Origin: a virus
Direction: 5' to 3' (one strand)
IMG/VR virus record: IMGVR_UViG_3300049186_000017
Location: 1 to 41,655 of that record
DNA length: 41,655 nt
Positions within the stretch are counted from its first letter, which is position 1. Each line of letters starts with the position of its first letter. A program made the translations under genes and the position numbers. The notes under the pieces are model-generated. The model saw only the letters and a list, made by a program, of their open reading frames with translations. It had not been told where the DNA came from and did not search any database. Shown here one piece after another: positions 6,424 through 41,655 of this stretch.

Positions 6424-6424
6424 T

Positions 6425-7233: not shown

Positions 7234-7442
7234 GTTGCCGCCTTCGCGCGCGCGATGTGCTCGTCGAAACTGGCGATGCGCGTGTCGAGCCCAGCCAGGG
7301 CAGCGCCGACTTCGTCATCCGACACCGGCTCGCCACCCATGGCGCGCTGGTACAGCGGCGTCAGCGTCGACACGGCTTGCATGGCCGCGGCGCCGGTGGT
7401 CGCGAAGTCGTTGATCAGCGTGATGATTTGCAGCGGTGTCAT
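7230..7442 (-). CDS. hypothetical protein (70 aa)
   Basis: Distal part of track ORF 7230..7790. ATGA overlap with the upstream lipoprotein gene. Confidence 0.55.
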   Translation of the reverse strand: MTPLQIITLINDFATTGAAAMQAVSTLTPLYQRAMGGEPVSDDEVGAALAGLDTRIASFDEHIARAKAAT

Positions 7443-7762
7443 TTCTTCTCCTGTTCGCGCAGTTGGCGCTCGAGCTCCAGTAACTGGGGCTGCAGGTTGT
7501 TGATCAACTGTTGCGGGTCGCAAGCCGGCAGCTTGCACAGCAGCAACGCTTCGCGCGTGTCGCTGATCGACTGGCGCGCCTTCTTGGCCCGGTAGCTGGC
7601 CTGCACCGCCTGCTCGGGCGTGATGCGGCCGCGCATGAGTGCTTGGTCCATCACCTGCACGTACGCCTCGACCGTGCGCGTCGCGGTGACAAGCGAAAGG
7701 TTCGGGTCGAACGTGGTGCAGGCTGCGAACAACAGCGCCGCGATGACGATCAGGCGTTTCAT
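7439..7762 (-). CDS. lipoprotein with C-terminal coiled coil (107 aa); candidate outer-membrane spanin component
   Basis: Distal part of track ORF 7439..8101. MKRLIVIAALLFAAC lipobox. ATGA overlap with the endolysin stop. C-terminal LQPQLLELERQLREQEKK. Confidence 0.72.
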   Translation of the reverse strand: MKRLIVIAALLFAACTTFDPNLSLVTATRTVEAYVQVMDQALMRGRITPEQAVQASYRAKKARQSISDTREALLLCKLPACDPQQLINNLQPQLLELERQLREQEKK

Positions 7763-8214
7763 CCGAGACCTTTCGTGTAGCTGACCCCATCGGGTCGAAA
7801 GTGAGCCGTCAGAACCTCGTTGCGCGGCCGTGGCGCGAACGAGATGTGCACCCAGCCGCCCTCTTGGATGAGCTGGTCGAACTTGATGCGGTCCATGTGC
7901 GCGACGATGAACTGCGACAGCCGGCTCGGCGGGCCGTACCTTGGAGCCACGAAGTCGCAGGCGTGGCCGTCCATGTGCTGCGAGTTGTGGGCGCCCCTCA
8001 CCGCTTGATTGAGCGCCGGGCAGCGATATCCGCTCTTGATGAGCACCGGCGCGCCGAGGAGATCGCGCACCGCCTGCATGCCCGGGATCAGCACATTGCA
8101 CAGCGTGGCCAGCACCGAAGCGTTCGGCGTGTTGTCGATGCCGAGCCGTGCAGCGGTGTCGCTCACGATGAACTCGGAGAGGTAGAAGTCCTTGGTGACG
8201 AGAACTTCGCTCAT
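7759..8214 (-). CDS. endolysin, peptidase M15 family (L-Ala-D-Glu / D-Ala-D-Ala peptidase-like)
   Basis: 151 aa. SGYRCPALNQAV..SQHMDGHACDF zinc-ligand pattern typical of Peptidase_M15_3 endolysins. Confidence 0.9.
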   Translation of the reverse strand: MSEVLVTKDFYLSEFIVSDTAARLGIDNTPNASVLATLCNVLIPGMQAVRDLLGAPVLIKSGYRCPALNQAVRGAHNSQHMDGHACDFVAPRYGPPSRLSQFIVAHMDRIKFDQLIQEGGWVHISFAPRPRNEVLTAHFRPDGVSYTKGLG

Positions 8215-11733: not shown

Positions 11734-11764
11734 CGGGCGCCCTTTCGACGGGGCACCCTTGGCA

Positions 11765-21000: not shown

Positions 21001-21442
21001 GGGGGCGCCTCCAGATGAACTGCCGGAACTGGTAGCCGGGGCCGGTCAGCTCCTTGAACACCGTAAAGCCCAGCGCCTCGACGAACCGCACCATCTCGGC
21101 GTTGCGCGCGTGCACGAGGTTGGTCAGCACGGGGTATTCACTGCGCATGCGCTTGATGACGCGGCGCGCCAGCCAGCCCACGGCGCTGCGCTCGGCCTCC
21201 GACAGCACCTCGGTGGACAGCATCCACGGGATGCCGATCTCGTGGCCCGGCATCGGACGGCAGCCGAAGGTGAAGACCTGGCGGCCGCGCCACAGCCCTT
21301 CTTCCGACCAGCCTTCGAGCGCGCCCTCGATCAGCGACTGCTCGTCGGCGCCGGCCGCCTCTAGTTCCTCGCGATCGGCCGCGCGCAGGTGCGCCATGCA
21401 GTGCCACATCGCATCGATCGTCAGCGGTCGTGTCGTCAGCAT
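20993..21442 (-). CDS. T7 gp13-like small virion-assembly protein (149 aa)
   Basis: Distal part of track ORF 20993..22075 (MLTTRPLTIDAMWH...). Sits between the gp12-like and gp14-like genes. The assignment rests on synteny and size. Confidence 0.6.
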   Translation of the reverse strand: MLTTRPLTIDAMWHCMAHLRAADREELEAAGADEQSLIEGALEGWSEEGLWRGRQVFTFGCRPMPGHEIGIPWMLSTEVLSEAERSAVGWLARRVIKRMRSEYPVLTNLVHARNAEMVRFVEALGFTVFKELTGPGYQFRQFIWRRPHV

Positions 21443-23673
21443 CAGCCGTTCACCGTGTGTTTGCGCATCACCGCCAGCAGGTGCATCGGCAGCGCTTGGT
21501 CTTGAATCACCGTCAGCTCGGCCTCGCCGCGCGCCCATCCCAGCTTGGAGGTGCGCACCAGGCCCGTCAGCGGTTCCGGTGGCTGGTCGAGCACGTTCTG
21601 CCCGAAGTGGCGAAACGCGATCTCCTGCTCGTTGCCCTCGGCGTCGGCCACCTTGGCGCCGACGGTTTCGAGAAACCGCATCGTCATCTCGCCGGTGCGC
21701 GCGGCGTTGCCCTGTGCGGAGCCTTCGCCCGTGCCGAGTTCCGGCGTCAGCAGGGTGCCTTCGCTGCGGAAGTGCAGGCCGATGAGCGCGCGCTTGGCGG
21801 TGCGCGGCAGCGTCACGTTGTTGGAGCCGTCGACGGTGAGCGCGCCCATCTCGGAGCCGTCGGCCACCACGCGCACCGTCTTGCCGGCCAGGTGCGGCAC
21901 GTTGAAGACAGATTGCCCCGCCGCGTTGTCGAACACCTTGCCGCAGTCGACGGTGCAGCCGTACACCACGCCATCGCTGTCGTCGGGGTGCAGGCGCTCC
22001 AGCGAGCTGTCGAAGCGCTCCAGATAGCGCACGCTCGAGCCGTTGATCGTTCGACGCACGATCGCCCACACCCACTCACGGTCCAGGTACGGCGCCGCCG
22101 CCACCCACTCGACGAAGCCATCGGTGCTGTGCACGGCCCAGCCGATCACGCTCGGGCTCTGGTCCCGATCGATCGTGCAGGACGCGAAGCCGCCATTGGT
22201 CAGCGCCGCCCACAGCATCAGCTCGGGCTCTTGCTGGTAGGCCAGCGCCGCGATGCCGCCGCCTTGCTTCGAGATGTGGTCGGCCAGCGCCGTGATGTCG
22301 GGCGCCGAGTAGCCGTCGAAGTCGTAGCGGTATCCCAGTGCGCGAATCTTGCGGCCGGCGCGCTGCACGAACATCACCTCGCGCCCGATCTGCACCGGCC
22401 GCACCTGCGCACTGCCGTGGTTGCTTTCCGGCACCACCCGCACGTTGGTCGGCGTGATCGGCTTTTCGACGCCGCCGCGCATGCTGTACTCGCCCGACTG
22501 CGTCAGCACGACGAGATCCTTGCCGGCCGACACGTAGACGATGGCGCTGGCCTCGTCGCTGTCGATGGTGAACGAGAACGCCTGATCGTCGACGGTGCCA
22601 AGCTCGAAGTCGAGCGGTTCGCCGATGCGCGAGCCCCACACAGTGCGCGGAAACTTGGTGGTGCCGGCTGCGATCAGCCGCTGCTGGTGGACGGTGCCCG
22701 TGCGCGGGTAGCCGAGCGCCGCCGTCCACACGAAATGCTCCAGCGACCATGACAGCGCCGGTGCAGCGGTGGTGCCGGCCAGTTCGCGCACGACGGTGCC
22801 ATTGACGTTCAGCGCATCCGTGAAGGCGGTCAACCGCACCAGGCCGCCATTGACGCGCACCATGGCCGGCACGTCGGTCGAGCGGAAGCCGTTCGTCGAC
22901 AGCGTGAGCGTGATCGCGGCGCCGATCGGGCCCGCAGCGCTGGGCGTGAGCGCGGCTTGCGGCGAGCCCTCCAGCGTCCACTGGCTGACCGGCACCGTGG
23001 TCGACGGGAAAACCCGCGTGATCTCGACCGTCACGACCGTGCTGCTGCTGAAGCCGGTAATCACCGCGATGCCGGAGTCGTACAGGATGCCGCGGCCGAC
23101 ATCGCCAGCCAGGAACACGGCGCCCGATGCGGTGGCCGTGCGCCCGGTGCCGACCGTGGCCGCGCTCAGCGTCAGGCTGACGGCCGGCAGGAACCCGACC
23201 TCGGCGAACGGCTTGGTCGTGAACGGCGCATCGCTGATCACCCACGTCCCAGAGCCCAAGCGCTGCAGCCGCTGGATCGGCACGCTGGCGTGAAACAGGT
23301 ACATCGTCGACTCGGATTGCGCCCAGTCGACAGAGGCCAGCATCGCCGACGTGTATTGCGTCGTGAGCTGCACGCCCGCATAGGTGCCGTCCATGTTGTA
23401 GACGCGCACGGTGAGGTTGCCGAACTCCAGCATCCATGCCTGATCGCGGCCTTGAATGAACGGCACCAGGATCGACGCGCCGGCCGTGGCCGACAGTGCC
23501 GCGGCCACATACAGCGAACCATCGCGGCGCTTCAGGCCGCCGGTGATCACCGGGTGGCAGTTGCGCGCGCGCTTGAGTGCCTGCTGATAGCGATCAATGT
23601 CCGAGCGCCCGAGCACGCGCGGGCTGACCTCGCCGCCGGTGAAACTGGTCTGGTTGAGGGTGACGCGCGGCAC
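21442..23673 (-). CDS. tail tubular protein B (T7 gp12-like nozzle), 743 aa
   Basis: GTG start. N-terminus LNQTSFTGGEVSPRVLGRSDIDRYQQALKRARNCHPVITGGLKRRDG matches the conserved opening of podovirus gp12-like proteins. Size and position fit. Confidence 0.8.
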   Translation of the reverse strand: MPRVTLNQTSFTGGEVSPRVLGRSDIDRYQQALKRARNCHPVITGGLKRRDGSLYVAAALSATAGASILVPFIQGRDQAWMLEFGNLTVRVYNMDGTYAGVQLTTQYTSAMLASVDWAQSESTMYLFHASVPIQRLQRLGSGTWVISDAPFTTKPFAEVGFLPAVSLTLSAATVGTGRTATASGAVFLAGDVGRGILYDSGIAVITGFSSSTVVTVEITRVFPSTTVPVSQWTLEGSPQAALTPSAAGPIGAAITLTLSTNGFRSTDVPAMVRVNGGLVRLTAFTDALNVNGTVVRELAGTTAAPALSWSLEHFVWTAALGYPRTGTVHQQRLIAAGTTKFPRTVWGSRIGEPLDFELGTVDDQAFSFTIDSDEASAIVYVSAGKDLVVLTQSGEYSMRGGVEKPITPTNVRVVPESNHGSAQVRPVQIGREVMFVQRAGRKIRALGYRYDFDGYSAPDITALADHISKQGGGIAALAYQQEPELMLWAALTNGGFASCTIDRDQSPSVIGWAVHSTDGFVEWVAAAPYLDREWVWAIVRRTINGSSVRYLERFDSSLERLHPDDSDGVVYGCTVDCGKVFDNAAGQSVFNVPHLAGKTVRVVADGSEMGALTVDGSNNVTLPRTAKRALIGLHFRSEGTLLTPELGTGEGSAQGNAARTGEMTMRFLETVGAKVADAEGNEQEIAFRHFGQNVLDQPPEPLTGLVRTSKLGWARGEAELTVIQDQALPMHLLAVMRKHTVNG

Positions 23674-23674
23674 A

Positions 23675-24274
23675 TCAGCCCCGCTTCGTCGACCACGCGC
23701 TCGAACCGATGAACCGCGACGCGAGCAGCGGGTTGTCGCCCAACGTCTCCGGCGTGTCGTCCTGGCCGTCGACGCCGCGCGTCACGCGCAGCACGTCGCG
23801 CAGCACGGACTCGACGACCTGTTCCATCGTGGTCGACTGCGTGATCGGGTAGGCGAACAGCGCTTTCATGACCGAGGTCATGGCCCACACGAGGCCAGGG
23901 TCCCAACTGCCGACGTTGTCGTTCTTGAAGACGTAGCGCAGCAGCAGCGGGTTGTCGTCGCACAGCAGCTTGCGGCCCTCGATGCGGAACTCGCCCTCGG
24001 CGTCGCGCTCGCCGATCGACAGCACCTTCAGGAAGTCGGCCGGCAGCGTGAACTGATAGCCCCAGTCGAAGGCTGGCGCGGTGGCGTCGGGTGACAGCGT
24101 CACGCGCTTAATGGCGCAGTTCCACGGGTGCCGGCGCAGCACGTAGTCGCGCGCCGGCTCGAACAGGTTGGACGCCATTCGCGCGCGGTCGCTGCTGTCG
24201 TCGAACGAGCTGATCGGGTTGTCCCCGAGCAGCAGCAGCGCGTTGGAGCAGATCGAGACAGCGGTTTGCGGCAT
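23675..24274 (-). CDS. tail tubular protein A / adaptor (T7 gp11-like), 199 aa
   Basis: Track ORF. N-terminus ICSNALLLLGDNPISSFDDSSDRARMASNLFEPARDYVLRRHPWNCA is the pattern seen in gp11-like proteins. Lies directly upstream of the gp12-like gene. Confidence 0.75.
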   Translation of the reverse strand: MPQTAVSICSNALLLLGDNPISSFDDSSDRARMASNLFEPARDYVLRRHPWNCAIKRVTLSPDATAPAFDWGYQFTLPADFLKVLSIGERDAEGEFRIEGRKLLCDDNPLLLRYVFKNDNVGSWDPGLVWAMTSVMKALFAYPITQSTTMEQVVESVLRDVLRVTRGVDGQDDTPETLGDNPLLASRFIGSSAWSTKRG

Positions 24275-24857: not shown

Positions 24858-25760
24858 TTAGGCGTTGGTGAAGTCGATGGCAACGACCTTTTTCTCGTCC
24901 TGGCGCGTCGCGCCAAGCGAGAGCCAGCCGTAGACCTCGGTCGGGTGACCGCGCTTGTTCTTGTTCTGGTCGACGTCGGTGCGCACATCGATGCCGGTGC
25001 CGAACTGAATGCCCGACTTCGCCCACGCGACCGTCCGGCGATCGGTGCCGCCGCCGGCGCCCGCGTCGAGCTGTTCGTAGGGAATCCAGGTGTAGCCGAG
25101 CCAGTTCTCGGCGACTTGACCGGCTTGCAGCATCTTCGACGCCATGAAGTCGGCCGACGTCAGCGTGGTGTCGGCCAGGATCTGGCGCACCATCGTCGAG
25201 TTGTAGAGGATGAACAGCTCCTCGCCGTTCTGCGCGTCCGCCTCGTTCGAGCGGAACAGCGCCACCGACTGGAGGATCTTGGTCTTGGTGAAGCCGGTGC
25301 CACCCGCCAGGATGATCTGGCCCGACGGCAGCGCCGTGCTCGACACCGTGCCGCCTTCGGTCGTGCGGGTCAGCGAGCCATCGAGCATCGCCCGATAGAT
25401 CGTCTTGTCCTTGCGACGGTTGGCGGCGGCAACCAGCAACTCGCTGTACTTGAAGGTCGGGTCGGCGACGAGCTTGGCCAGGTCGAAGCCATCGACCACC
25501 AGCGGGCCGATGTCGTAGTCGGCCATGTACGCGATCCGCGTCTCGTGGCTGACGTCTTGCGCTTGCTTGTCTTGGTAGCGGCCAGTGACTTCGCGCGCTT
25601 CGACGAGACCGAGGTTGTTGGTCGTGAAGCTGGAGCCCTGGATCATCCCGCGATCCATGACGCGGCCCTGCATGCGCGAGGTCTTCTGCTGCAGGGCGTG
25701 GATGAACGTGTCGTGAAACTGCTGCCGGAAGGCAGTGGTGATGGTCGGTGAGGTGGACAT
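24858..25760 (-). CDS. major capsid protein (300 aa)
   Basis: Track ORF. AAGGAA RBS. Follows the scaffold-like gene. Size and composition fit an HK97-fold capsid protein of BPP-1-like podoviruses. Confidence 0.82.
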   Translation of the reverse strand: MSTSPTITTAFRQQFHDTFIHALQQKTSRMQGRVMDRGMIQGSSFTTNNLGLVEAREVTGRYQDKQAQDVSHETRIAYMADYDIGPLVVDGFDLAKLVADPTFKYSELLVAAANRRKDKTIYRAMLDGSLTRTTEGGTVSSTALPSGQIILAGGTGFTKTKILQSVALFRSNEADAQNGEELFILYNSTMVRQILADTTLTSADFMASKMLQAGQVAENWLGYTWIPYEQLDAGAGGGTDRRTVAWAKSGIQFGTGIDVRTDVDQNKNKRGHPTEVYGWLSLGATRQDEKKVVAIDFTNA

Positions 25761-25913
25761 GATCCGTTTTCCTTGGAACGAATCGCCGCGGGTTGCGGGT
25801 GTCCTTTCGGGCCGCCGATCAGCGGGGCGCTGGGCGCTTGGCGTCTCGCTGGGCTATCCCCGGTATCCGGCTGCCACACCGGGCGGGTTGCGCGCAATGT
25901 GCGGCACCCCGCC

Positions 25914-25929
25914 CGCAGAAATCTCTGCG
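25914..25929 (-). promoter_or_regulatory. late-unit motif copy 2 (CGCAGAGATTTCTGCG), 3 nt after the scaffold stop and 153 nt upstream of the capsid ATG
   Basis: Identical to the copies at 11825..11840 and 35440..35454. Followed by a GGGCGGG...CCCGCCC hairpin. Confidence 0.45.
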
Positions 25930-25931
25930 CT

Positions 25932-26771
25932 TCAGCCCTGCGGGAACTTCTTTGCGTAGAGCGCCTGCACCTTGGCCACGGTGGATGCGTGCTGCGGATC
26001 GGCGTTGTCGAAGTACGCCTTCGATCCCATCAGCGCTTCGAGCGTGTCGGTCTCGGCCGATGTCAACGCGCCCTGCACCGTCTGGTCCTCGTGCAGCTCC
26101 TTGCCGATCGACGCCATCAGGCGCAGGAAGTCGGGGTCGCTGCCGAACTTCGCGTCGACGCGCGCGTGCAGTTCCTTGTCGCTGCCGGCGAACGCATTCA
26201 CCGCGCGATACGCATCGGCCAGGCCGCGGCCGTACTGATCGTCGGTCGGCCACGCTTTGCGCAGCTCGGGCTCGGCGAGCTCCGGGCGGTTGCGCATCGA
26301 CTCGCGCTCGGCCAGTGCTTCGAGCACATAGGAGACCTGCGCGTTCGTCATGCCGCGCGCGTGCGCACCCTTCAGGAATCCCTGGTACAGCGGGTCGGCC
26401 TTGAGCGTTTCGAGCGACAGGCCCTCGGGCACGCTGGGCGCGTAGTCTTGCGGCGTCTTCGGCGGTGCATCACCGGCGCCGAGGCGCTGCTCGAGCGCGC
26501 TGTGGCCCTCGGCCCACTTCGCCATGCTGGCATCGTTGTCGATGCTGCCGTCGGCGGCCTTGACGTGGTACTTCGCCGGGATCGGCGAGGCAGGCGCAGC
26601 GGCCGGCGTTGGGGCAGGCGTAGGTGCAGCCGTGGCGCCCTTTGCCAGCAGCGAGGGTGCAGGGGCTGCAGGTGCTGCCGGCGGGGTCGGTGCCGGGCTC
26701 GGCGCTGCTGGTGCGCTGGCTGCTGGCGCGGGCGCTGCTGCGACGGGATCGGCGGTTGCGGCTTCGGACAT
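25932..26771 (-). CDS. scaffolding protein (279 aa) with Ala/Pro-rich N-terminus
   Basis: Frame of track ORF 25932..26795. AGGAGA lies 7 nt upstream of ATG 26771. Helical acidic C-terminal part. Sits immediately upstream of the capsid gene. Confidence 0.72.
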   Translation of the reverse strand: MSEAATADPVAAAPAPAASAPAAPSPAPTPPAAPAAPAPSLLAKGATAAPTPAPTPAAAPASPIPAKYHVKAADGSIDNDASMAKWAEGHSALEQRLGAGDAPPKTPQDYAPSVPEGLSLETLKADPLYQGFLKGAHARGMTNAQVSYVLEALAERESMRNRPELAEPELRKAWPTDDQYGRGLADAYRAVNAFAGSDKELHARVDAKFGSDPDFLRLMASIGKELHEDQTVQGALTSAETDTLEALMGSKAYFDNADPQHASTVAKVQALYAKKFPQG

Positions 26772-26784
26772 GCACGGTTCTCCT

Positions 26785-27726
26785 TCAATCGGCATCGGCG
26801 GTTGCGCGGCGCTTGCGCAGCTCGCGCTCGATCGAGTCGATGCGGTCCTCGATGGTCTGTTTGGGCTGCGAGCGCAGCAGGCCGCGCTGCGCGTGCAGCA
26901 GCGAGAAATCGCAGCTCAGCGCGGCGATGCCGACGGATTGCAGCGGGGCCGTGGCCACGATCTCGAACGGGCCCGGCGCGGCCTTCGGTGGCAGGCGCAG
27001 GATGGAGCGTTGCGGCGCGTCCTTCGGCTCGCTGCGCGTGGCCGACCCCGGCATCTGGCTGCCGACGAACGGGCCGAACGGGATCACGACCGGCGCGCTT
27101 TCGTAGACGAGGTCGCCCGCGATCGTGCCCGAGCCATTGCCGGCAATCGCCGCGGTGAACGCGAGGTCGGTGCCGACGTTGATCTGCCCGGCCAGGCCAC
27201 CCTGCCCGACGCCTGCGATCACGTTGGTCTGCGTGATCTCATAGGTGCGATACGTGCTCCAGTAGCGCGGGCCGAAGAAGCGCGACCCGAAGTACCGCGG
27301 CCCGAAGTACCGGCCGTCGCCGGGCGCCGTCGGAAAGCCGATCACGATGGACCCGGCCAATGCCCCGACGCCAACACCCGTTGGCAGCAGCAGCGGCGGC
27401 GCAATGAAAAACTCGGTGTCGCTGACGTAGGCCAGGTCGCCCGAGATGGCGCCGATGCCGACGCCGGCGATCGGTGCCACGAACGACACGCCGGCGCCGG
27501 GCGGCACATCACCGGATAGTCCACCGATGCCGGTGCAGGCCAGCACGTTGGTCTGTGCGAAGGTGAACGGGCTCGTGTCGGCCGGCGACGCGAAGAAGCG
27601 CCGGCCGTAGAAACGCTTGCCGAAGTAGCGGCTGCCCCAGTAGTACCCGGCAGCGCCGTTGCTGCCGTGGTGCCCGAAGTAGCGCCCGCCGAAGTAGCGC
27701 GGGGAGAAGTACCGCGCCGCGAACAT
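26785..27726 (-). CDS. RYFG-repeat protein with an internal two-fold duplication (313 aa), unknown function
   Basis: Track ORF. Arg/aromatic/Gly repeats (ARYFSPRYFGGRYFG, SRYFGKRFYGRRFF, GRYFGPRYFGSRFFGPRYW), each followed by a homologous ~50-aa segment (FTFAQTNVLACTGIGGLSGD.. versus YEITQTNVIAGVGQGGLAGQ..). Confidence 0.75.
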   Translation of the reverse strand: MFAARYFSPRYFGGRYFGHHGSNGAAGYYWGSRYFGKRFYGRRFFASPADTSPFTFAQTNVLACTGIGGLSGDVPPGAGVSFVAPIAGVGIGAISGDLAYVSDTEFFIAPPLLLPTGVGVGALAGSIVIGFPTAPGDGRYFGPRYFGSRFFGPRYWSTYRTYEITQTNVIAGVGQGGLAGQINVGTDLAFTAAIAGNGSGTIAGDLVYESAPVVIPFGPFVGSQMPGSATRSEPKDAPQRSILRLPPKAAPGPFEIVATAPLQSVGIAALSCDFSLLHAQRGLLRSQPKQTIEDRIDSIERELRKRRATADAD

Positions 27727-27732
27727 GGTGCG

Positions 27733-28335
27733 TTAGGTCGCGTCGCGCGTGATCGCCGTGCGGTTGCCGTCAGCATCCACCGTCGCGACGATGCGATCCT
27801 TGGTGTCCGCCGGGTCGCGGTAGGTCGCCGTCGTCGTGGCCAGTCCGCTGGCCTTGCCGAACAGCGCCGCGTTCTGCAGGCGCGTCGCCTGGCGGAAGGT
27901 GATCGTGCCGTCGACCTGCTCGTCATGCACCGCATCGACCTCGGCCGCCAGCGCAGTGGCGTAGGCCGTGCCAGCGAACTGCACCGCATCCACCTGCAGG
28001 TTGTCCGACGCCGCGATCAGCGAGTCATAGACGACCGCGTTCAGCACGCAGCACTCCACCTTGACCGGCAGCGCGCCGCTCGGGTGGCAGTAGATCGTCA
28101 GCAAGCCCAGCGTGTCGGTGTCGGTCGCATCGAGCACGATGTAGTAGATGCCGTTGGAGATGTGCGTCGCGCCGCCGGAGTTCTTGTTCGCCAGCGTGGT
28201 CGCCCCGTTCTTGTGGAGCTTCACGTCGGTGTTGGCGATCGTGAGTGCGGTCTCCTCGGTGTTGCCGTCCGTGGAGTCGACGAAGTAGCCGAGCGAGACC
28301 TCCTGAGAGGCCGTGGATTGACGGAGAAAGCGCAT
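27733..28335 (-). CDS. virion-associated beta-rich protein, unknown function (200 aa)
   Basis: Track ORF (MRFLRQSTASQEVSLGYFVDSTDGNTEETALTIANTDVKLHKNGATT...). Tight spacing within the late operon. Confidence 0.72.
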   Translation of the reverse strand: MRFLRQSTASQEVSLGYFVDSTDGNTEETALTIANTDVKLHKNGATTLANKNSGGATHISNGIYYIVLDATDTDTLGLLTIYCHPSGALPVKVECCVLNAVVYDSLIAASDNLQVDAVQFAGTAYATALAAEVDAVHDEQVDGTITFRQATRLQNAALFGKASGLATTTATYRDPADTKDRIVATVDADGNRTAITRDAT

Positions 28336-28344
28336 GGTTGGCCC

Positions 28345-29028
28345 CTACTGTGAAAGTTGATTGAACGCGCGCGGCGCGTTGCCGGCGGCACTCGCGGATG
28401 CGTCCTTGAACGCGAAGCCCAACATCAGCCAGTAGTCCTCGTTGATGTTGTATTTGGGGTGCTCGTTCGTCAGCGGAGAAGCGCTGATCTTTTCCTCAAG
28501 CACGAAGTAGTACGAGTTGCCGCCGAAGTTCGTGCCCAGGCGCTTGGTGTAGCCCGTGCCGACGGTCGGATCGTCGGTCGGGTACACGTGGCCGCAGCCG
28601 ATGTAGAGCCCCGCCGATGCGCCGGTGATCGCGCCGGGGTCCGGGTTGCTCGCCGTCGCGCTCGCCTGCGCGCTAACTGGCGTGCCCATCAAGGCGTTGA
28701 CGGTGTCCACGCCCGTGTACTCGGCGACGCACAGACTGCGGAAGCCGCTCGTCGCTGACTGCACCTGCACCGTCGTCGCGCCGGCGTTGACGTTCTTGGC
28801 GTAGGCCGCAGTGACGCGCAGGCCCATGCTGCCGTGGAAGATGTTCGCGATCGGCGTCCAGGTGTTGCCGTTGTTGTCCGTGAACGTGGACGTTTCGTCG
28901 GTGGTGTTTGAAGACACCGCCACGAGCAGCGAGCCCGCCGCTGCGTTCTGCGCCAGCGCACGCGTCAGCACGGTGCCGACGTTGTTGGCCGGCAGCCAGA
29001 GGTTGTTCGTGACGCCAGCGATTGCCAT
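28345..29028 (-). CDS. beta-sandwich / lectin-like protein, unknown function (227 aa)
   Basis: Track ORF. The ATG shares 1 nt with the upstream TAA. Ser/Thr/Asn/Gly-rich beta-type composition. Confidence 0.72.
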   Translation of the reverse strand: MAIAGVTNNLWLPANNVGTVLTRALAQNAAAGSLLVAVSSNTTDETSTFTDNNGNTWTPIANIFHGSMGLRVTAAYAKNVNAGATTVQVQSATSGFRSLCVAEYTGVDTVNALMGTPVSAQASATASNPDPGAITGASAGLYIGCGHVYPTDDPTVGTGYTKRLGTNFGGNSYYFVLEEKISASPLTNEHPKYNINEDYWLMLGFAFKDASASAAGNAPRAFNQLSQ

Positions 29029-32000
29029 TACACGGTCCTCGGTTTGATCGCCCAGGTCGGGTACTCCGTCATCGGAGCGAGGCAGTCAGACCAGTTGCTG
29101 GCGCCGACCAGCCTGTTGTATGCGGTCAGTGCACCCGGCAAGCCACAGTCCACGGCATACGAAATGGCGGGCAGCATGGTTGACCAATAGCTGTACGCGA
29201 TAGGCCAATTGCCGCCGTTGAGGGCGGCATCCACGCCGGGGTTAGGCACACCTTCGCTCGCCTGATAGATCGCACCCCAACTGGAGTACCAAGGGCCGGT
29301 GCCATTCGTCCAATCGGTGCTATGCGTCGGCGCGTAAGCGATGGTGTAGCGGCCAGCATCGGCGTAGCGATACTCGGCAGAGGAAAGTCCGCCCAACCGG
29401 CCGGTGATGCTGTTGTTGATCCAATTAAGGAATCCGTCGAGGCGCGACAACCGCGTGGCGTTGAAATTGACCTTGGTCTGCTTGATGAACCCCCACGCAA
29501 AAACGTTCCAGTCGTTCTGCCAAATCGCGGCGTTCCAGATCACCGATGGGTTGAGGCCGTTGTTAGGCCAAAATTCATACTGATGCAGCAAGCCCTGCGG
29601 GTTGTTTGCCTGGGCGACGTACTTGGCGTGGTAGTAGTCGACGTTGCTGCTCAGGACGTTCAGGTACTCGGTTTGCAGCGGGTCGCCGTCCGGTGTGACG
29701 AGATAGGCGCAGGTCAGCGTTCGCAGCGCCCAGGCTGCACCTCGCGGGGTATACGAGGCCGTGTCCGTCCGCAGGATGCCCTGAGCAAAGCCGCGGATGT
29801 CGTCGCTGTTGGTGAGATAGTTGGTTGCCGCCGCGAATTGCAAGGTTTCGGCGTGATACTTGCGCCCGGTCAACAGATAGATGAGATAGCCATGCAACGG
29901 GTGATGCGCAATGTCCCAGGCGCAAACTTGCCCGCCCGTAAACGTCGGCGTGTGCTGGTTGAGCGTTGAATCGCCGACACCGGTGACGTCACCCTGCGCA
30001 TCTGCAAGCACTAGGTTCGGGTACTGCGAAATACGGATCGGCCTTCCCTGCGCCGACGAGTCTGGTTTGTTGGTGGCCGACTCACGCCGATGCAACGCAT
30101 AGCGACCGGCCACGTAGCTATGCGCGTTGATGCTGGCCCATGTGCGCGCGTCGTTGCTCGCCGTGAGGTGGAACGCATCCCACAGGGGCATCGGCCCGAT
30201 CCAGGTGGCCTCGCCGCCTCCGGTCATTTCACTCTCGATCACGTCCCCAAACCCATAAGGTGACCATGTGGTCGAAAGGCTGCCGAGCCTCGAGGCGCCT
30301 GTGCTGTTGGTGCGATACGTGGGCACCATCGCGGTCTGCTGCAAATACGCCTTGTTGTGCTCCGGTCGCACCCCAGGGTCGGTGCCGGCCCAGTGCGTCC
30401 AGGCCGTGCCGCTGCCGCTGATGAGCACCATGCGGTTAAACGCGCGCAGATTGATGGCGCCGCTGTAGCGCTGCGAGCCGTTCAGCGTGAGCGTGTACGT
30501 CGCGCTCTTGGCGGCGGGGCCGCTGACCAGGAGGTAGCCATTCTCGATCCATGGCAACACTTCAACGTTGCCCGAGGCGTACAGGCGCACCTCCAGCCAC
30601 GCCACCAGGTGCGGATCGGAGCCCACCGGCTTGCGGTAGCGCCACGACGACATGGCGTTGCCGCTGACCCAGGTTTCAAACGGCAGATCCCAGTCTGTCG
30701 TGGCCCACGATACCGAGCCGAATGTGCCGCATACGATGCTCGCGGTGATGCCGGTGGCCTTGAGGCTGGCTGTGGTGAGCGCGCTGCCGGTGGTGGCGGC
30801 GCCGTTGCGGCGAATCCTGATCGTCTTGGCGACGTTGGCCGTGAGCGTGGTGGAACCCGACACGATTGCGAAGCGCGCCGAGCCATCGGGCCATGTGTTT
30901 TTGACGTCGACCTGCAGTGCGATGTCGCCGCCGATCACCGCGCCGGAGGGCAAGTCGCCCTGCTTGAAGGGCTGGCCGATGGTGAAATCTTTGGTGCCGC
31001 TGGAGGTGGACACCAGATCGAACGACACGATGTCGGTGGTGATGTTGGCGTAGCGGAAGCACCACACGTTGTCGCTGGTGCTGCGCACGTAGGTGATGAG
31101 CTTGAGCGCCGGAAAGTGATTGAAGCGCCCCGAGAGGTTCTTGGAGCCATCGGTCAGCGGGCTGGGCGGCTTGGTGCCGGCCACGGCGTACACCGAGATC
31201 GCAAACGTAGTGGGGTGGATCTCGTAGACGTCGTTGGCCGACCACGAGAACATCAAGAAGCGATCGATGTCGGGCACGTAGACCAGCGAGCAGCCGGGCG
31301 TGGTGTTGCCGAACACGCCGGTGAAGCTGACGGTGGACTCGGCGGCGTTGTTGTTGAGGTCGTAGAGGCGGTGCAGATACGAGCCACCGCCGCCGATGCG
31401 CAGGATGCGGTTGCGCGTGGTGTCCACCGCCATGACGCACGGCACGTCGTAGACTTGCTTGCCGCCCAGGTCGGTCCAGGTGGCGTCGCTCTGGTTCCAG
31501 CGGTAGATGTTGTTCGAACCGTCATACCGTTGGACGTAGACGTTGCCGTTGGCGTCTTGGCACACCGGCATGGCGATCTGGATGCCGCCCCCTGTCGGAT
31601 TTGGAACTGGGGCATATGTGCCCGCAGGGTCCCAATCGTTCGTGGCGAAGTTGAACGCATCCACTGCAGCGGTGTGCGTGCCACCGCTCGCTTCGTACAG
31701 CGACGGCCCGCCGTGCATGAACAGTCGATTGCGCTGCGGGATGAACTGCAGGTTCCACGAGCTATGCCGCGAGCGCGGGCGGCCGTCGGCGTAGTGCGTG
31801 CTCGTGCCGGGCGTGACTCCAGGGGTCGGGTTGCGGCGACAGAGCCACGCCACGATGTTTGCGAGCAGATCGGCCGTCAGGTTCTCGTTGCCGCCGTAGT
31901 CGAGATGGCCCCCGCCCTCCAAGCCGATGCCGCGATCCCACACGTAGCCGCCAGAGAACGACGTGATGAACTGCTTCGCCCCGGCTGAGCCTGGGTTTGC

Positions 32001-32471
32001 ATAGCCCGCCTGCGCGGTCTGCGGTTGCGTGTTCGGGATCTCAAACCACGTGTTGAGCGGCACGCCGGCCAGCCATGAGGGCAAGCCATCCGCGTTGATG
32101 GTGTCAAACGCGAGCGGCGAGCCGAGATTGGAAAGCCCGCCGTTGTTCGTGATGCTGACCGACGACGTGCCGTCGGTGCTGCGGGTGACGGTGAAACTCT
32201 GCGCCGCTGATGAGCCTGCGGAGAACGTGAGCGAGCCAGGGGATACCGAGCCGGCATTTGTCGCCGCTGGTGTCACGATCACTGTGCTGGCCAGCACCCC
32301 GTTGGGCGTGACCGTGAACGTGCCAGGCAGCCCCGTGGTCCCCGAAGTCGGCCCCGACAGCGTGACGCCGTTCGCGGGCCCGGGGCCGGTGTTGATCTGC
32401 GCGTCACCCGAAACCGCGCCTGACCCGACACCGGCGAGCCGAATCGCTCGGGTCAGGTTGAAGCGGCTCAC
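29028..32471 (-). CDS. 1147-aa multidomain protein: N-terminal Ig-like segment, probable beta-propeller, C-terminal Trp/Tyr/Asn-rich helical domain (polysaccharide lyase/hydrolase-like)
   Basis: Track ORF. GTG start in a GTGA overlap. TFTVTPNG...SLTFSAGSSAAQSFTVT is Ig-like. Repeated ~50-aa blades (e.g. NGNVYVQRYDGSNNIYRWNQSDATWTDLGG). C-terminal AWDIAHHPLHGYLIYLLTGRKYHAETLQFAAATNYL. Domain calls are by eye only. Confidence 0.8.
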   Translation of the reverse strand: MSRFNLTRAIRLAGVGSGAVSGDAQINTGPGPANGVTLSGPTSGTTGLPGTFTVTPNGVLASTVIVTPAATNAGSVSPGSLTFSAGSSAAQSFTVTRSTDGTSSVSITNNGGLSNLGSPLAFDTINADGLPSWLAGVPLNTWFEIPNTQPQTAQAGYANPGSAGAKQFITSFSGGYVWDRGIGLEGGGHLDYGGNENLTADLLANIVAWLCRRNPTPGVTPGTSTHYADGRPRSRHSSWNLQFIPQRNRLFMHGGPSLYEASGGTHTAAVDAFNFATNDWDPAGTYAPVPNPTGGGIQIAMPVCQDANGNVYVQRYDGSNNIYRWNQSDATWTDLGGKQVYDVPCVMAVDTTRNRILRIGGGGSYLHRLYDLNNNAAESTVSFTGVFGNTTPGCSLVYVPDIDRFLMFSWSANDVYEIHPTTFAISVYAVAGTKPPSPLTDGSKNLSGRFNHFPALKLITYVRSTSDNVWCFRYANITTDIVSFDLVSTSSGTKDFTIGQPFKQGDLPSGAVIGGDIALQVDVKNTWPDGSARFAIVSGSTTLTANVAKTIRIRRNGAATTGSALTTASLKATGITASIVCGTFGSVSWATTDWDLPFETWVSGNAMSSWRYRKPVGSDPHLVAWLEVRLYASGNVEVLPWIENGYLLVSGPAAKSATYTLTLNGSQRYSGAINLRAFNRMVLISGSGTAWTHWAGTDPGVRPEHNKAYLQQTAMVPTYRTNSTGASRLGSLSTTWSPYGFGDVIESEMTGGGEATWIGPMPLWDAFHLTASNDARTWASINAHSYVAGRYALHRRESATNKPDSSAQGRPIRISQYPNLVLADAQGDVTGVGDSTLNQHTPTFTGGQVCAWDIAHHPLHGYLIYLLTGRKYHAETLQFAAATNYLTNSDDIRGFAQGILRTDTASYTPRGAAWALRTLTCAYLVTPDGDPLQTEYLNVLSSNVDYYHAKYVAQANNPQGLLHQYEFWPNNGLNPSVIWNAAIWQNDWNVFAWGFIKQTKVNFNATRLSRLDGFLNWINNSITGRLGGLSSAEYRYADAGRYTIAYAPTHSTDWTNGTGPWYSSWGAIYQASEGVPNPGVDAALNGGNWPIAYSYWSTMLPAISYAVDCGLPGALTAYNRLVGASNWSDCLAPMTEYPTWAIKPRTV

Positions 32472-32845
32472 TGCAACTGCTGCGAATACTGCAGGCCGCC
32501 AGGGCAGCCCACCGAGGTGGCGGTGCCGGGGATGGTGACGCTCGTGATCTGCAGGTCGCCGGAGCCGACGCCGACGGTGCCGCTGATCACGTTGACGCTG
32601 CCGGACGTGCGCAGCTCGAACTTGGCGATGTCGCCCGGCGTGACGGTGTTGTCGGCGGCGATCGAGTTGGATTGCGCGACCGCAGGGCTCGCCGTGGTGG
32701 CGCCCTGAAACGCCGTCGCAGCGAACGTCAGGCTTGCCAGCTCGGCATCAGCCGCCGTCAGCAGGCGGAACTGGCCCGAGTTCAGCAGCGCCAGGATCGC
32801 ATCGCACGCCGCTTTCTTCGCTAAGTTGGAGTAGCTCAGTGCCAT
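32468..32845 (-). CDS. hypothetical virion-module protein (125 aa)
   Basis: Distal part of track ORF 32468..32941. GGAGG lies 6 nt upstream of ATG 32845. GC3 switches to this frame at the ATG. Confidence 0.7.
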   Translation of the reverse strand: MALSYSNLAKKAACDAILALLNSGQFRLLTAADAELASLTFAATAFQGATTASPAVAQSNSIAADNTVTPGDIAKFELRTSGSVNVISGTVGVGSGDLQITSVTIPGTATSVGCPGGLQYSQQLQ

Positions 32846-32963
32846 CGATGGCCTCCGTCTGGATCGTGAATGGCGCCGTACCGACCACGTTGCCGTCGGC
32901 GTCCTTGAACTCAAGCATCCCGGTGAATTGGCCCTTGCCAAGCCCGCCTTCAGTGAGATTCAT
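32748..32963 (-). CDS. small ORF (71 aa) whose last ~98 nt overlap the next gene out of frame
   Basis: Track ORF. ATG 32963 forms an ATGA overlap with the upstream stop. Only the first ~39 codons show coding-like third positions. Confidence 0.4.
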   Translation of the reverse strand: MNLTEGGLGKGQFTGMLEFKDADGNVVGTAPFTIQTEAIDGTELLQLSEESGVRCDPGAAELGPVPPADGG

Positions 32964-33187
32964 GCCTGTACCTTGTTGATCTGCCCGAGGATGTGGTCGA
33001 GCACCTGCCGGCGCCCGAGGTTGATCAGCGTTTGCCGCTCGCCCTCTTGCCCGCCAGCCACGAACAGCTCGCCGCCGAAGCGCGCCATGAGGTCGACGAG
33101 CACGGCCTCGCCGTCGCGGTACAGCTCGAACGTCGAGCGGTACTGCTGCGGGCTGGCTGCAGCCTCGTCGGCGCGGGTGATCGTCAT
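32960..33187 (-). CDS. Bbp19-like small protein (75 aa)
   Basis: Track ORF. ATGA overlap with the portal stop. Size, position and sequence style recall the Bbp19 family of BPP-1-like phages (from memory, unverified). Confidence 0.65.
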   Translation of the reverse strand: MTITRADEAAASPQQYRSTFELYRDGEAVLVDLMARFGGELFVAGGQEGERQTLINLGRRQVLDHILGQINKVQA

Positions 33188-34779
33188 GCGACCTTCGCTG
33201 CGCGGTTCATCGCCGCCTTCGCGGCCTCTTGCTGCAGCACCATGGCCTGCTCTTGCTGCATGGCCTGCTGCTGCTGCTTCTCGCGCTTGTCACGCAACTT
33301 CGCGACCGCCTTCTCGTCGCGCAGCGCCTTGGCGGGTGCGCCGAGACCATCGGCCATCAGGCGCAGGGAGTTGTCGACGTCAATCAAGTCGGCCGCCTCG
33401 GGGAAGCCGCTCTGCACCATCGCGCCGGCGTTGGCGGCCAGGCGCTCGACGGCGGTGACTTCTTCCAGCTTCTGCGCGCGCGCCAGCGGCGACTGGTAGC
33501 GGATGGTCAGGATGCGGTCGCGCAGCGTGTCGGGCGGTGTGCCAAGCAGCCCGGCGCGGTAGGCCATGCCGAACACGCGCGTGATGGTCGGCGCCAGGTC
33601 TTCGGCCTGGAAGCGCCCGAACAGCGGGCCGAGCAGTTGGCGGATCAGCGCCACCCGCACGTGCACCTCGGTGGCCGTCATCGCAGGGCCATCCTGCGGC
33701 TGCAACTGGTCGGCCATCAGGATGCGGCGGATCTCGGCGCGGAGCTGGTCCGCCTTCGAGAACGTGACGTTGAAGTCGGCGCCGCTGGGCAGCTCCTTGA
33801 TGCTGTCGACCGAGTTGGCGACGATCACGCTGCCGCCCTTGACCTTGACGACGCGCGGGTTCAGCACGCCATCGTCCTCGGCCACGTACACGCCAGCGGC
33901 TGCGCGCGACAGCGCTTGCGATTCGAGCTGCAGCAGGGTGTTCAGCTCGTTGATCGTGGGCAGCGCCGCCGACACCGGGCCGACGGCGTAATCGCTGCCG
34001 GGCAAGGTCATCCAGCGCGGCACGATCGCGGGCATCTCGTGATAGCCCGATTCGCGCACCAGTTGCTTGGTGGCCACCTCGACGTGGCACGAGGCGATCG
34101 GCAGATTCTTGGCCAGCCGCGAGCCCTTGACGTAGTCGGCGCGCGGATAGATCGCCATGACGAACTCGAACTGATCGAGCTTGCCCTGCGCCGCCGCGTC
34201 CTTGACCTTGTCGGAGCACGCGTCGCCGTAGGCGTTCATCGCCTGCTCGGCCGAGAGCTTGAAGCGGCGAATCACCGTGTCGACCAGGCCGCCCGCCTTG
34301 CTGCAGCGGAACTTCACCTGCGCCAGCGGCCACTGCTCGAACGTGAGCGTGTCGCCCTCGGGGATGAACAGGCAGAACCAGCCGGCGGCCACGCTGTCGA
34401 GCACGGCCTCGAACTTCGCCGCGTCGTAGTTGGCCCCGTGGATCTGCTCCCACAGGAACTTGGCCACGCCGTCGAGCCAGCGCCGCTCCTCGTCGGTCTC
34501 GTCGCCCGCATCGAGCGCGAACCAGACGTCGTTGGCCGGCGTCATGCCCGACATGATCGAGCTCGTCAGCAGCCGCACCGCGTCGGCCGCGGTCGAGTCC
34601 ATCTGCTCGGCGCGCTTGTTCTGCGCGGTCTGAGCCGTCATCACGTCGTCGCCGCCGAGGCCCTGCCCGCGCTCCGGGTAGGTGGCCTCGAAGCACCGGC
34701 GCCACACGGATTCGTGCGGCTGGCGCTGCGCCTGCATCTCGCTGTCCCAGCGCAGGATGCGCGCGGCGGTGGTCTCCAT
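33184..34779 (-). CDS. portal protein (T7 gp8-like head-to-tail connector), 531 aa
   Basis: Track ORF. Conserved podovirus portal features (N-terminal RWDSEMQAQRQPHESVWRRCFEATYPERG, C-terminal Gln/Ala-rich tail). Confidence 0.92.
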   Translation of the reverse strand: METTAARILRWDSEMQAQRQPHESVWRRCFEATYPERGQGLGGDDVMTAQTAQNKRAEQMDSTAADAVRLLTSSIMSGMTPANDVWFALDAGDETDEERRWLDGVAKFLWEQIHGANYDAAKFEAVLDSVAAGWFCLFIPEGDTLTFEQWPLAQVKFRCSKAGGLVDTVIRRFKLSAEQAMNAYGDACSDKVKDAAAQGKLDQFEFVMAIYPRADYVKGSRLAKNLPIASCHVEVATKQLVRESGYHEMPAIVPRWMTLPGSDYAVGPVSAALPTINELNTLLQLESQALSRAAAGVYVAEDDGVLNPRVVKVKGGSVIVANSVDSIKELPSGADFNVTFSKADQLRAEIRRILMADQLQPQDGPAMTATEVHVRVALIRQLLGPLFGRFQAEDLAPTITRVFGMAYRAGLLGTPPDTLRDRILTIRYQSPLARAQKLEEVTAVERLAANAGAMVQSGFPEAADLIDVDNSLRLMADGLGAPAKALRDEKAVAKLRDKREKQQQQAMQQEQAMVLQQEAAKAAMNRAAKVA

Positions 34780-34782: not shown

Positions 34783-35199
34783 CTACAGCGCGCTTTCGCG
34801 ACGCGGCGAACCGATCGTGGCGCGGCCTCCGCCGCCGCTCGCCAGCAGGCTGCTGGTCGGTCGAGCTGCGCCAGAGCGGGTGCTGCGACTGAGCAGCGTG
34901 CGCGCGTTGCTCAGGAACGGCGCGTCGACGCTGGTGGTTGCCTCGTCGCCGAACGTGGGCTGCGGCGCGCCGGGCGCACCTGTGGCAAGCAGCGATTTCT
35001 GCTCGCGCCGGCGCCGGTTGTCCGCCGCCACCTTCGCATTGGCCGATTGCGATGCGCGCGACTGCGCCTCCGCAGCGTCGGACTCCGAGCCGCGCAGCGC
35101 GTCTTCGGCGGCGTGGCGCGCCTTGCGTGCCGTGTCAGCAGCGGCAACACCGCCGGCCACGGCCGTGATTCCGGCGATGATCGACACGGGCTCGCACAT
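34783..35199 (-). CDS. small virion protein (138 aa) with Gly/Ala-rich hydrophobic N-terminus
   Basis: Track ORF. MCEPVSIIAGITAVAGGVAAAD resembles the N-terminus of 20476..21000. Confidence 0.68.
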   Translation of the reverse strand: MCEPVSIIAGITAVAGGVAAADTARKARHAAEDALRGSESDAAEAQSRASQSANAKVAADNRRRREQKSLLATGAPGAPQPTFGDEATTSVDAPFLSNARTLLSRSTRSGAARPTSSLLASGGGGRATIGSPRRESAL

Positions 35200-41317: not shown

Positions 41318-41571
41318 GCGATTGGCCCTTGGGCACGCGCGCGGCGCACGCGCAGCGAATGCTCGATCACCTGGAGGTCACCACATCGGCCGAGCGTGAG
41401 CTCGCCGCGGCGGCCGCAGACCGCATGAGCGAGCGCGCCGAACTGCTGGCCATGTGCAAACAACTGCTGTTCGCGCTGGCGTCGGTGCAACTGATCGGCG
41501 GCGCCAACGACAAGCGCGCCGCGCTGTGCGACATAGCGCGCGCGTTGATCAAGCGATGCGAAGGGAGGTGA
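41314..41571 (+). CDS. hypothetical protein (85 aa), spans the circular junction
   Basis: Distal part of track ORF 41035..41571. ATGA overlap upstream. The last 43 nt are repeated at 1..43. Confidence 0.58.
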   Translation: MSDWPLGTRAAHAQRMLDHLEVTTSAERELAAAAADRMSERAELLAMCKQLLFALASVQLIGGANDKRAALCDIARALIKRCEGR

Positions 41572-41655
41572 TGAGATGAACCACGTCCGTGGCTTCCACG
41601 GCCACATGCGCCCGCCGCGGCGCGACACCCGCAAGAGCGGCACGCATCCGGTCGA
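41529..41655. repeat. 127-bp exact terminal overlap, copy 2 (identical to 1..127)
   Basis: See copy 1. Confidence 0.9.

Follow-up and report, generated by a model that had tools for sequence, protein, structure and literature searches.

Bead-on-rope networks on phage virions, comprising the garland, collar-whisker and GP4 Fiber-1 assemblies, are known from a few recently solved structures and their function is still unclear. In the Agrobacterium phage 7-7-1, the garland protein gp014 is present as numerous dimers placed around the distal portions of both long and short tail fibres, and the same virion carries capsid fibres of unknown gene origin (PMC12796354). The garland proteins of phage Milano have the fold of T4 gp8 and A511 gp105 and are arranged as beads on the extended chain of a partner protein (PMC10811340). 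In phage Bas63, the whisker protein consists of an N-terminal helix followed by an incomplete beta-sandwich, and its dimers wrap the N-terminal rope of an immunoglobulin (Ig)-like collar protein that forms a 12-mer at the adaptor (PMC12609058). According to the same study, this system is homologous to the Fiber-1, rope and collar proteins of the podophage GP4 (PMC12609058). Here, we describe a block of six genes at positions 26785-32963 of the virus record IMGVR_UViG_3300049186_000017, which was analyzed over its whole length of 41,655 nucleotides (nt; hereafter the window). The block may encode a virion-borne accessory appendage of the bead-on-rope type with a glycan-active head, a reading to which we assign a probability of about 0.55.

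The six open reading frames (ORFs), named genes a to f in transcription order (Table 1), lie on the minus strand between the portal and Bbp19-like genes on one side and a scaffold-like gene on the other. This is the arrangement and these are the coordinates given in the original prediction, an annotation made from the letters of the window alone. The third-position GC of genes a-f ranges from 0.83 to 0.92, the same as in the neighbouring genes, which supports the view that all six are truly coding. The gaps at the junctions are small throughout, with -4 nt between portal and Bbp19-like gene, -4 between the latter and a, -98 at a/b, -4 at b/c, -1 at c/d, +9 at d/e, +6 at e/f and -11 between f and the scaffold-like gene. 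A scan of both strands of the block region detected no sigma-70-like promoter, and every terminator-like site detected in it lies on the strand opposite to the genes. From the small gaps and the lack of an internal promoter-like site it follows that genes a-f are tightly coupled, although the 4-nt overlap, which the original prediction had extended to the whole block as a common syntax, is not present at all junctions. None of the six products matches a Pfam family at E ≤ 0.01, with only noise at E ≤ 5, which agrees with the earlier statement that no standard head-assembly protein is among them. The only one of the six with a PHROG match, and a weak one, is d.

The nearest cultured phages, as judged from the portal, are the Yersinia phages YeP4/5/6 (55% identity) and the Alcaligenes phage Piluca (41%). 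In YeP4 and Piluca, the portal gene is followed by the genes for a small protein, the scaffold and the capsid with nothing in between, as had been expected for the normal order of such head modules. Since both phages are without genes a-f at that site, the synteny comparison that had been proposed gives a clear result: the block is a true indel, inserted exactly between the Bbp19-like and the scaffold genes. The portal, scaffold, capsid, adaptor and nozzle of the window are homologous to those of YeP4 and Piluca only, and not to those of the other loci in which the block was found. The flanking portal/Bbp19-like genes (32960-34779) and scaffold/capsid genes (24858-26795) are backbone and lie outside the cassette.

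Homologues of the 1147-aa (amino acid) protein c are rare, with 24 clusters among 5.8 billion proteins, and their genes are accompanied by a recurring run of a small protein, a 125-aa protein, the giant, and proteins of ~205-240, ~200-275 and ~295-320 aa, followed by scaffold and capsid. The cassette is combined with a P22-type portal and Phage_capsid_3 in locus L003, with a P22 portal and P22 coat in L004 and the P0018 locus, with the SU10 portal and SU10 capsid in L005, L006 and L019, and with a P22 portal in L008. In the lambda-type loci L021 and L022, a b-like gene and a large protein are found between the TerL and portal genes, while in L030 the cassette comes after the capsid gene and before the tail genes. 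BLAST comparison across the cassette loci gives identities of 65-69% for b, 54-63% for residues 1-130 of c, 64-70% for the last ~70 residues of e (80% for the whole protein in L005) and 36-44% for the N-terminal part of f (~1-200 to 1-218). For d, no BLAST homologue was found in the other cassette loci, where a gene of 205-241 aa fills the same position. Nothing beyond the cassette is detectably common to the window and these loci. Because it stands beside portals and capsids of unrelated types (P22-, SU10- and lambda-type), the block is a conserved and horizontally mobile cassette present in several unrelated head lineages. Its conserved pieces are a, b, the N-terminus of c, the C-domain of e and the N-terminal part of f, while its variable pieces are the distal domains of c, the whole of d, the N-domain or spacer of e and the C-terminus of f. 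Such a conserved core with variable, host-facing parts points to a multi-subunit complex and is a hallmark of receptor-binding machinery.

The most conserved marker of the cassette is gene b, the family of which comprises 87 clusters, all of ~125 aa and none of them named. The AlphaFold model of b (predicted local distance difference test score, pLDDT, 90.8) contains a helix at residues 4-20 followed by a beta-sandwich. Its best Foldseek match in the PDB is 9rkv_A, the garland protein gp014 of Agrobacterium phage 7-7-1, with template modelling (TM) scores of 0.76/0.69, a root-mean-square deviation of 2.5 Å and a probability of 1.0. The next matches are 9mt4_K of Bas63 and 9c39_K of Sf14 (probability 0.97-0.98, TM 0.48-0.55). 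In profile comparison with hhalign, b aligns with 7-7-1 gp012 (Prob 81%, E 1.2e-5, 34% identity over 103 columns), but no sequence signal was obtained against gp014, GP4 Fiber-1 or the Bas63 whisker. Furthermore, 23 of 29 members of the b family match phrog_3758, annotated as virion structural protein, with a best E of 2.4e-5, while the b protein of the window itself reaches only E 0.1. On its predicted structure, b has the garland/whisker fold. Like the described garland proteins, it is a small protein with an N-terminal helix and a beta-sandwich that can be superposed on a solved member of the family, and its gene is next to that of a large putative fibre or tailspike protein, the end of b sharing 4 nt with the 1147-aa gene. 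In nine of the ten other b-carrying loci examined (L003, L004, L005, L008, L019-L022 and L025), a large protein is encoded directly after the b-like gene; in L026, b is followed by a gap and then by a 154-aa ORF only.

Within 7-7-1, gp012 (L033 8334-8765) and the garland protein gp014 are paralogues (phmmer E 5e-11). The former is not mentioned in the main text of the structure paper (PMC12796354). As the garland of Milano is thought to consist of two paralogues, gp125 and gp127, that of 7-7-1 might likewise be mixed.

The small gene a, immediately upstream of b, is characterized by the motif G-[TM]-[LF]-E-[FC]-x-D-x-x-G, which was found at this position in 11 of the 15 sequences scanned, the window included; the other ten are L003, L004, L005, L008, L009, L014, L015, L019, L025 and L026. 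In L026, the homologue is also matched by BLAST. In the window, gene a overlaps b by 98 nt (32748-32845), whereas its homologues of 51-57 aa overlap b by ~20 nt, and the protein of the window seems to have acquired a C-terminal extension from a displaced stop codon.

At its N-terminus, the giant protein c has an extended peptide and, next to it, an Ig-like domain. In every locus compared, the large protein encoded after a b-like gene begins with a peptide of the same type; the motif is clearest in L003-L005, L008, L021, L022 and L025 and only weak in L019 and L020. L007, a locus without b, lacks the peptide. The peptide is a candidate rope segment. Residues 1-130 are 53-67% identical in homologues that differ in their distal domains, and the Ig-like domain occurs in four copies, together with fn3, in the homologue P0024. 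For the adjoining region, profile matches in the PDB are to Keap1 Kelch domains (E 2e-4), and Foldseek returns Kelch/WD propellers, including designed Kelch proteins at E 1e-5, while Kelch_3 is found at E 0.02, below the Pfam cut-off, and most of the segment has a pLDDT < 60. Of the two folds expected in this part of the giant, the Ig-like domain is thus recovered in the model, and the propeller is supported by profile and Foldseek matches but poorly modelled.

The order of the distal domains is permuted among homologues, being N-terminus, propeller and sandwich/helical part in the window but N-terminus, sandwich/helical part and propeller in P0002, P0006 and P0008. Residues 480-1147 are 28-42% identical in nine homologues, and H-H-P and R-G-x-x-W are conserved motifs of the distal part of c. 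Foldseek searches of the PDB and BFVD with the full model were dominated by propellers and gave no assignable match for this part, Pfam gave none either, and PDB sequence and profile searches with c found only Kelch. The helical toroid of the original prediction therefore stands as a helical domain in the AlphaFold model, but not as a member of any assignable enzyme family. Residues 480-1147 are presumed to form a glycan-active catalytic module because of the domain types and the homologues of c. Where homologues have retained residues 1-125 alone, their distal domains are different, among them a Pel9A-like beta-helix (PF22842, in P0014 and P0018) and PF06848. The 1147-aa protein itself has no Beta_helix or pectate-lyase match in Pfam and does not qualify as a beta-helix depolymerase. 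Overall, c is modular, with a conserved N-terminal peptide and Ig-like domain to which exchangeable distal domains of glycan type are attached. In L007, a siphovirus-like contig with GpA terminase, lambda-type portal and Phage_tail_3, a homologue of the giant (3974-7525) lies between the terminase and portal genes, without a b gene and without the N-terminal peptide. A phage can evidently use the enzyme module in the absence of the bead system.

Less can be said about gene d, which matches phrog_7114 (minor tail protein) weakly, at E 2.5e-6. Its C-terminus consists of a Gly/Ser-rich linker and a short tail, a pattern that recurs at the same position in other loci, and the protein is probably lectin-like. 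Gene e has 2277 homologues, the alignment of which reveals two conserved domains, an N-domain (residues 1-120) and a C-domain of ~70 aa, that are separated by a spacer varying in length. Other members are encoded in the tail-fibre regions of siphoviruses and podoviruses (L027, L028 and L029), and some match tail-fiber and virion-structural PHROGs; a search of the PDB with the family profile found nothing. The family context identifies e as a putative short fibre-type protein. A 207-aa protein in GenBank entry PP496355, named Microcystis phage Mvi-Yong1342-1, is 75% identical to residues 3-120 of e (L023 9001-9354); its gene is located after that of an 849-aa structural protein and before the lysis genes. 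That e modules are nearly identical in phages with no other relationship suggests a recent exchange of the domain or a host group in common. Furthermore, the C-domain of e (63% identity over the last 60 residues) forms the end of a 720-aa protein of the siphovirus MW202621 (L024 7021-9183). The gene for this protein is situated between the portal and capsid genes among other large unannotated genes, in another enlarged head module.

The last protein of the cassette, f, contains two arrays of R-Y-F-G-x pentapeptides (six and four copies), each followed by Gly-rich beta units, and a charged, variable C-terminus. Its family comprises 69 representative clusters and is conserved over residues 1-220. 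The C-termini of the family fall into motif classes, namely an acidic run with LLLL, A-A-G-V-F-D, and the type Q-T-Q-A-N-A-E-S-L...P-G-A-D-Q-I-P-P-V, and that of the window (…RKRRATADAD) is outside all of them. Protein f is a candidate for an independent rope.

Among the described systems, those of the Felixounavirus myophages Bas63 (PDB 9MT4) and Sf14 (PDB 9C39) resemble the cassette in gene position, since their genes, too, lie between the portal gene and those for protease or scaffold and capsid. The order in Bas63 is TerL (gp2), portal (gp3), gp4, gp5, protease (gp6), Dec (gp7) and capsid (gp8), where gp4 is the collar (9MT4_G) and gp5 the whisker. Both systems share with the cassette a small bead protein made of an N-terminal helix and a beta-sandwich, and in Bas63 the partner protein likewise has an Ig-like domain after an extended N-terminal peptide, a likeness that in c is seen by architecture only. 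However, the similarity in fold is moderate (TM ~0.5) and is not accompanied by a sequence signal. In the cassette, the bead gene precedes the collar-like gene, unlike in Bas63, and the putative collar is extended by ~1000 residues of Kelch and sandwich/helical domains. Furthermore, genes a, d, e and f have no counterpart in Bas63, and the phage carrying the cassette is a podovirus without a head-completion or tail-terminator ring.

The garland of 7-7-1 (gp014 and gp012; PDB 9RKV) offers the best fold match and the sole profile-level match of b. In both 7-7-1 and Milano the garland gene adjoins a fibre or spike gene, and in 7-7-1 the long-fibre and garland genes are found between those for TerS and TerL/portal, far from the baseplate genes. 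In these two phages, however, the garland sits on the distal ends of fibres attached to the baseplate of a contractile tail, whereas podoviruses have no baseplate. The garland gene of 7-7-1 comes after its fibre gene, and the other proteins of that cluster are not similar to c, d, e or f.

The podovirus among the solved systems is the Ralstonia phage GP4 (PDB 8JOU), the Fiber-1 protein of which has 140 aa and is present as ten chains in the entry. As described for this system, Fiber-1 dimers bead on a separate rope that is anchored to an Ig-like collar near the neck (PMC12609058). Fiber-1, rope and collar would correspond to b, f and the Ig-like domain of c, respectively. The Fiber-1 gene (8JOU_a) comes after the capsid and adaptor-like genes, as does the cassette in L030. 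However, b has no sequence similarity to Fiber-1, and no enzyme module is reported for the GP4 collar.

Polysaccharide-degrading appendages mounted on the collar or the tail, in which the attachment end is conserved and the catalytic end can be exchanged, are also familiar from phi29-like phages (neck appendages, gp12*) and podovirus tailspikes. In line with these, cassette homologues sharing the N-terminus of c carry a beta-helix of pectate-lyase type. On the other hand, c is without a beta-helix, trimerization is not indicated, and attachment would apparently be achieved by separate bead and rope proteins.

In the bead-on-rope appendage that we favour, dimers of b would clamp onto extended rope segments, formed by the N-terminal peptide of c and probably also by the repeat units of f. 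Clamping would hold together, in a single complex, the giant c with its presumed enzyme, the variable and probably lectin-like d, and the short fibre e; by analogy to Bas63, Sf14 and GP4, this complex would sit as a collar of appendages at the portal/adaptor neck. Its variable outer parts could bind and cut host exopolysaccharide, capsule or lipopolysaccharide, giving the phage a second, swappable surface specificity alongside its candidate beta-helix tailspike. The bead-on-rope architecture is suggested by the fold of b and by its strict pairing with a protein that starts with a disordered peptide followed by an Ig-like domain, as in Bas63, Sf14 and GP4. The neck is suggested by the position of the cassette beside the portal gene in five portal lineages, although a neck location specifically would make up somewhat under half of the probability given to the appendage. 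In more general terms, the domains of c, the loci of the e family and the fold of b all support what had been proposed from the sequence, namely an extra carbohydrate, receptor-binding or virion accessory module.

Several observations weigh against such an appendage. The presence of all six products in the virion is something we infer, and tblastn searches of phage records found b and f in no cultured phage. The best structural match of b is a garland protein at the distal side of a baseplate rather than a neck whisker, the whiskers being matched at TM ~0.5 only and without sequence signal. For the Ig-like domain of c, no homology to known collar proteins was detected, and the putative catalytic module of c could not be placed in any known enzyme family, so that its activity is presumed. 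A role of the f C-terminus as a lineage-specific adaptor was considered and rejected, as its motif classes are independent of the portal or capsid type, and it is hard to see where a core that is 65-80% identical would dock in phages whose portals, adaptors and capsids are unrelated. A link between the two putative ropes is weak as well: a hidden Markov model (HMM) of the f unit scores a mean of 4.3 bits on the c N-terminal peptides, against -0.1 ± 2.8 for shuffled sequences. Of the 17 peptide scores, 11 were reached by at most 4 of 100 shuffles. Conversely, an HMM of the c peptide gives repeated low-scoring matches at five fixed positions of f, with whole-sequence scores no better than those of shuffles. 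A rope motif common to the c peptide and the f units is, on these scores, suggestive only.

A bolder version of the appendage, which we regard as tentative and somewhat doubtful, is a self-contained plug-in host-range module with a polysaccharide-degrading head. It would recognize a generic feature of the connector, not a protein of one lineage, and could thereby dock on the portal vertex of almost all kinds of tailed phages (T7-, P22-, SU10- or lambda-type), with the RYFG-repeat protein f as a new rope or universal anchor. A different location for the same kind of assembly would be the far end of the tail, with the cassette proteins surrounding the distal parts of the primary tailspikes and modulating or extending their binding. 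The strongest structural match and the sole profile match of b, 7-7-1 gp014 and gp012, are indeed garland proteins, and garland proteins wrap the distal domains of long and short fibres (PMC12796354, PMC10811340). Moreover, the fibre and garland genes of 7-7-1 lie inside the packaging/head block, which means that gene position does not dictate the site of the product. Nevertheless, this location is unlikely, as the cassette-bearing phages share no detectable tail or tailspike proteins, yet the core of the cassette is 65-80% identical. In addition, the conserved partner peptide of b is provided by gene c of the cassette itself, and in most loci examined the cassette is beside the portal gene and not the tailspike gene. 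The complex could also be mounted on the shell, at vertices or hexamer centres, as depolymerase-bearing head fibres that make a first reversible contact with capsule or biofilm. Ig-like domains such as that of c occur in Hoc-like decoration proteins, the cassette is inside the head-gene operon, and the 720-aa protein of MW202621 that ends in the C-domain of e is encoded between portal and capsid. Also, the capsid fibres of 7-7-1 lack an assigned gene, and unassigned structural genes adjoin its garland genes (PMC12796354). Against this, the solved relatives of b are all located at the neck or baseplate, and the cassette is associated with at least four unrelated capsid families (Phage_capsid_2, Phage_capsid_3, P22 coat and SU10_MCP) with which no cassette part co-varies. 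We give capsid fibres only a slim chance, and of the three options named in the original prediction they are the least favoured.

Two further readings would take the products away from the virion surface altogether. As a moron, the cassette would encode a soluble complex that, at lysis or in the lysogen, degrades or modifies host exopolysaccharide and serves progeny spread or superinfection exclusion. The phage is temperate (integrase at 5154-6137), we infer rather than observe the virion presence of the cassette products, and the many unrelated phage backgrounds are easiest to explain if docking is unnecessary. This reading is improbable, however, because translational coupling ties the cassette into the portal-to-capsid operon and no promoter-like site was found inside it, the b and e families have known or annotated virion or fibre members, and conserved docking ends with variable outer domains are typical of structural receptor-binding proteins. 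Minor head proteins associated with the portal, such as SPP1 gp7 and MuF, are often encoded right behind it, and the charged, scaffold-like C-terminal half of f would suit proteins that are packaged via portal or scaffold and injected, like MuF-type minor head or T7 core proteins. An internal or ejected role is nonetheless highly improbable for the cassette. No Pfam family, and hence no Phage_Mu_F, was found on any of the six products, the genome already contains a gp14-like gene and three further candidates for internal proteins (841, 666 and 689 aa), and Kelch propellers, like the beta-helices of the homologues, would be unlikely cargo for the tail channel. A MuF-like polymorphic toxin was also considered and dropped, as none of the six ORFs carries a Pfam domain.

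The remainder of the window (G+C 67.6%) is in keeping with a phage of the T7 type. Positions 1-127 are identical to 41529-41655, and this exact 127-bp terminal overlap identifies the window as a complete, circularly assembled phage genome of ~41.5 kb or as a genome with a 127-bp terminal repeat. The late genes are on the minus strand, and the tyrosine integrase and M15 endolysin genes indicate that this T7-like podovirus is temperate. The gp14-like gene adjoins the portal gene on its upstream side, while in T7 gene 14 is located after the tail genes. Downstream of the nozzle gene, the ORFs of 841, 666 and 689 aa have no family match in Pfam and are candidates for internal proteins by position alone. 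The 883-aa ORF, which had been taken for a conventional pectate-lyase tailspike, could not be confirmed as such, its beta-helix matches in Pfam being below threshold. From its listed TTG start, this ORF overlaps the end of the terminase gene by ~250 nt (11765-12021), and its true start is probably further downstream.

Table 1. Position of the cassette genes, the segments of protein c and the other genes of the window (nt positions in the window)
Feature	Position	Strand	Remarks
Gene a, 71 aa	32748-32963	-	
Gene b, 125 aa (from ATG)	32468-32845	-	ORF list gives an upstream TTG at 32941
Gene c, 1147 aa	29028-32471	-	
c residues 1-30, extended N-terminal peptide	32382-32471	-	F-x-L-x-R-x-x-R-L ... 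G; residues 1-29 with pLDDT < 50
c residues 31-125, Ig-like beta-sandwich	32097-32381	-	AlphaFold pLDDT ~88, all-beta
c residues 130-476, Kelch-type beta-propeller module	31044-32084	-	Profile and Foldseek matches
c residues 480-1147, beta-sandwich (480-705) and helical domain (706-1147)	29031-31034	-	pLDDT mostly 80-95
Gene d, 227 aa	28345-29028	-	
Gene e, 200 aa	27733-28335	-	
Gene f, 313 aa	26785-27726	-	
gp14-like internal virion protein gene	34783-35199	-	PF24072, E 3e-4; phrog_805
Portal, T7-type	33184-34779	-	PF12236, E 7e-101
Bbp19-like gene, 75 aa	32960-33187	-	PF25181
Scaffold-like gene	25932-26795	-	phrog_3742
Major capsid protein	24858-25760	-	PF19821
Adaptor	23675-24274	-	phrog_394
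Nozzle	21442-23673	-	
T7-type terminase	11765-13420	-	
883-aa ORF, tailspike candidate	9370-12021	-	Sub-threshold beta-helix Pfam matches
M15 peptidase endolysin	7759-8214	-	PF08291
Tyrosine integrase	5154-6137	+	PF00589

The cassette is scarcely represented in existing collections. Among 50,697 phage records, none was matched by the 21.6-kb right part of the window in megablast. Searches of the phage records with tblastn were likewise negative for b, for f and for a divergent homologue of b, while the 1147-aa protein has a single weak match there, gp39 of EBPR siphovirus 1. Among 185,579 species genomes, a profile-based rescan detected gene b in two contigs of metagenome-assembled genomes only (a first scan had detected none), which suggests that prophage copies are rare; yet the phage is temperate. 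No description of the cassette was found in the literature searched. The assembly principle and the fold of b are already known from structures of 2023-2025, whereas the cassette itself, the enzyme-extended collar-like subunit and the RYFG-repeat protein appear to be new, as do the presence of the cassette in podoviruses of several lineages and its horizontal mobility.

For annotators, the cassette is a caution that genes between portal and scaffold are not necessarily head-assembly genes. It also adds four families to the structural repertoire, namely a, the N-terminus of c, d and f, none of which has a model in Pfam or, apart from the weak match of d, in PHROG. If the appendage reading is correct, the bead-on-rope principle would extend to T7-like, P22-like and SU10-like podoviruses and to lambda-type phages, and it would be linked to a large, exchangeable glycan-active enzyme, suggesting a role in adsorption or depolymerization. 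The whole assembly would then move horizontally as a unit between phages with nothing else in common, and one would have to ask how a single appendage fits connectors that are unrelated. With a generic mode of docking, the cassette could be a natural chassis for depolymerases or new specificities in therapeutic phages, and should the plug-in version hold, phages would exchange whole accessory adsorption organelles and not receptor-binding domains alone.

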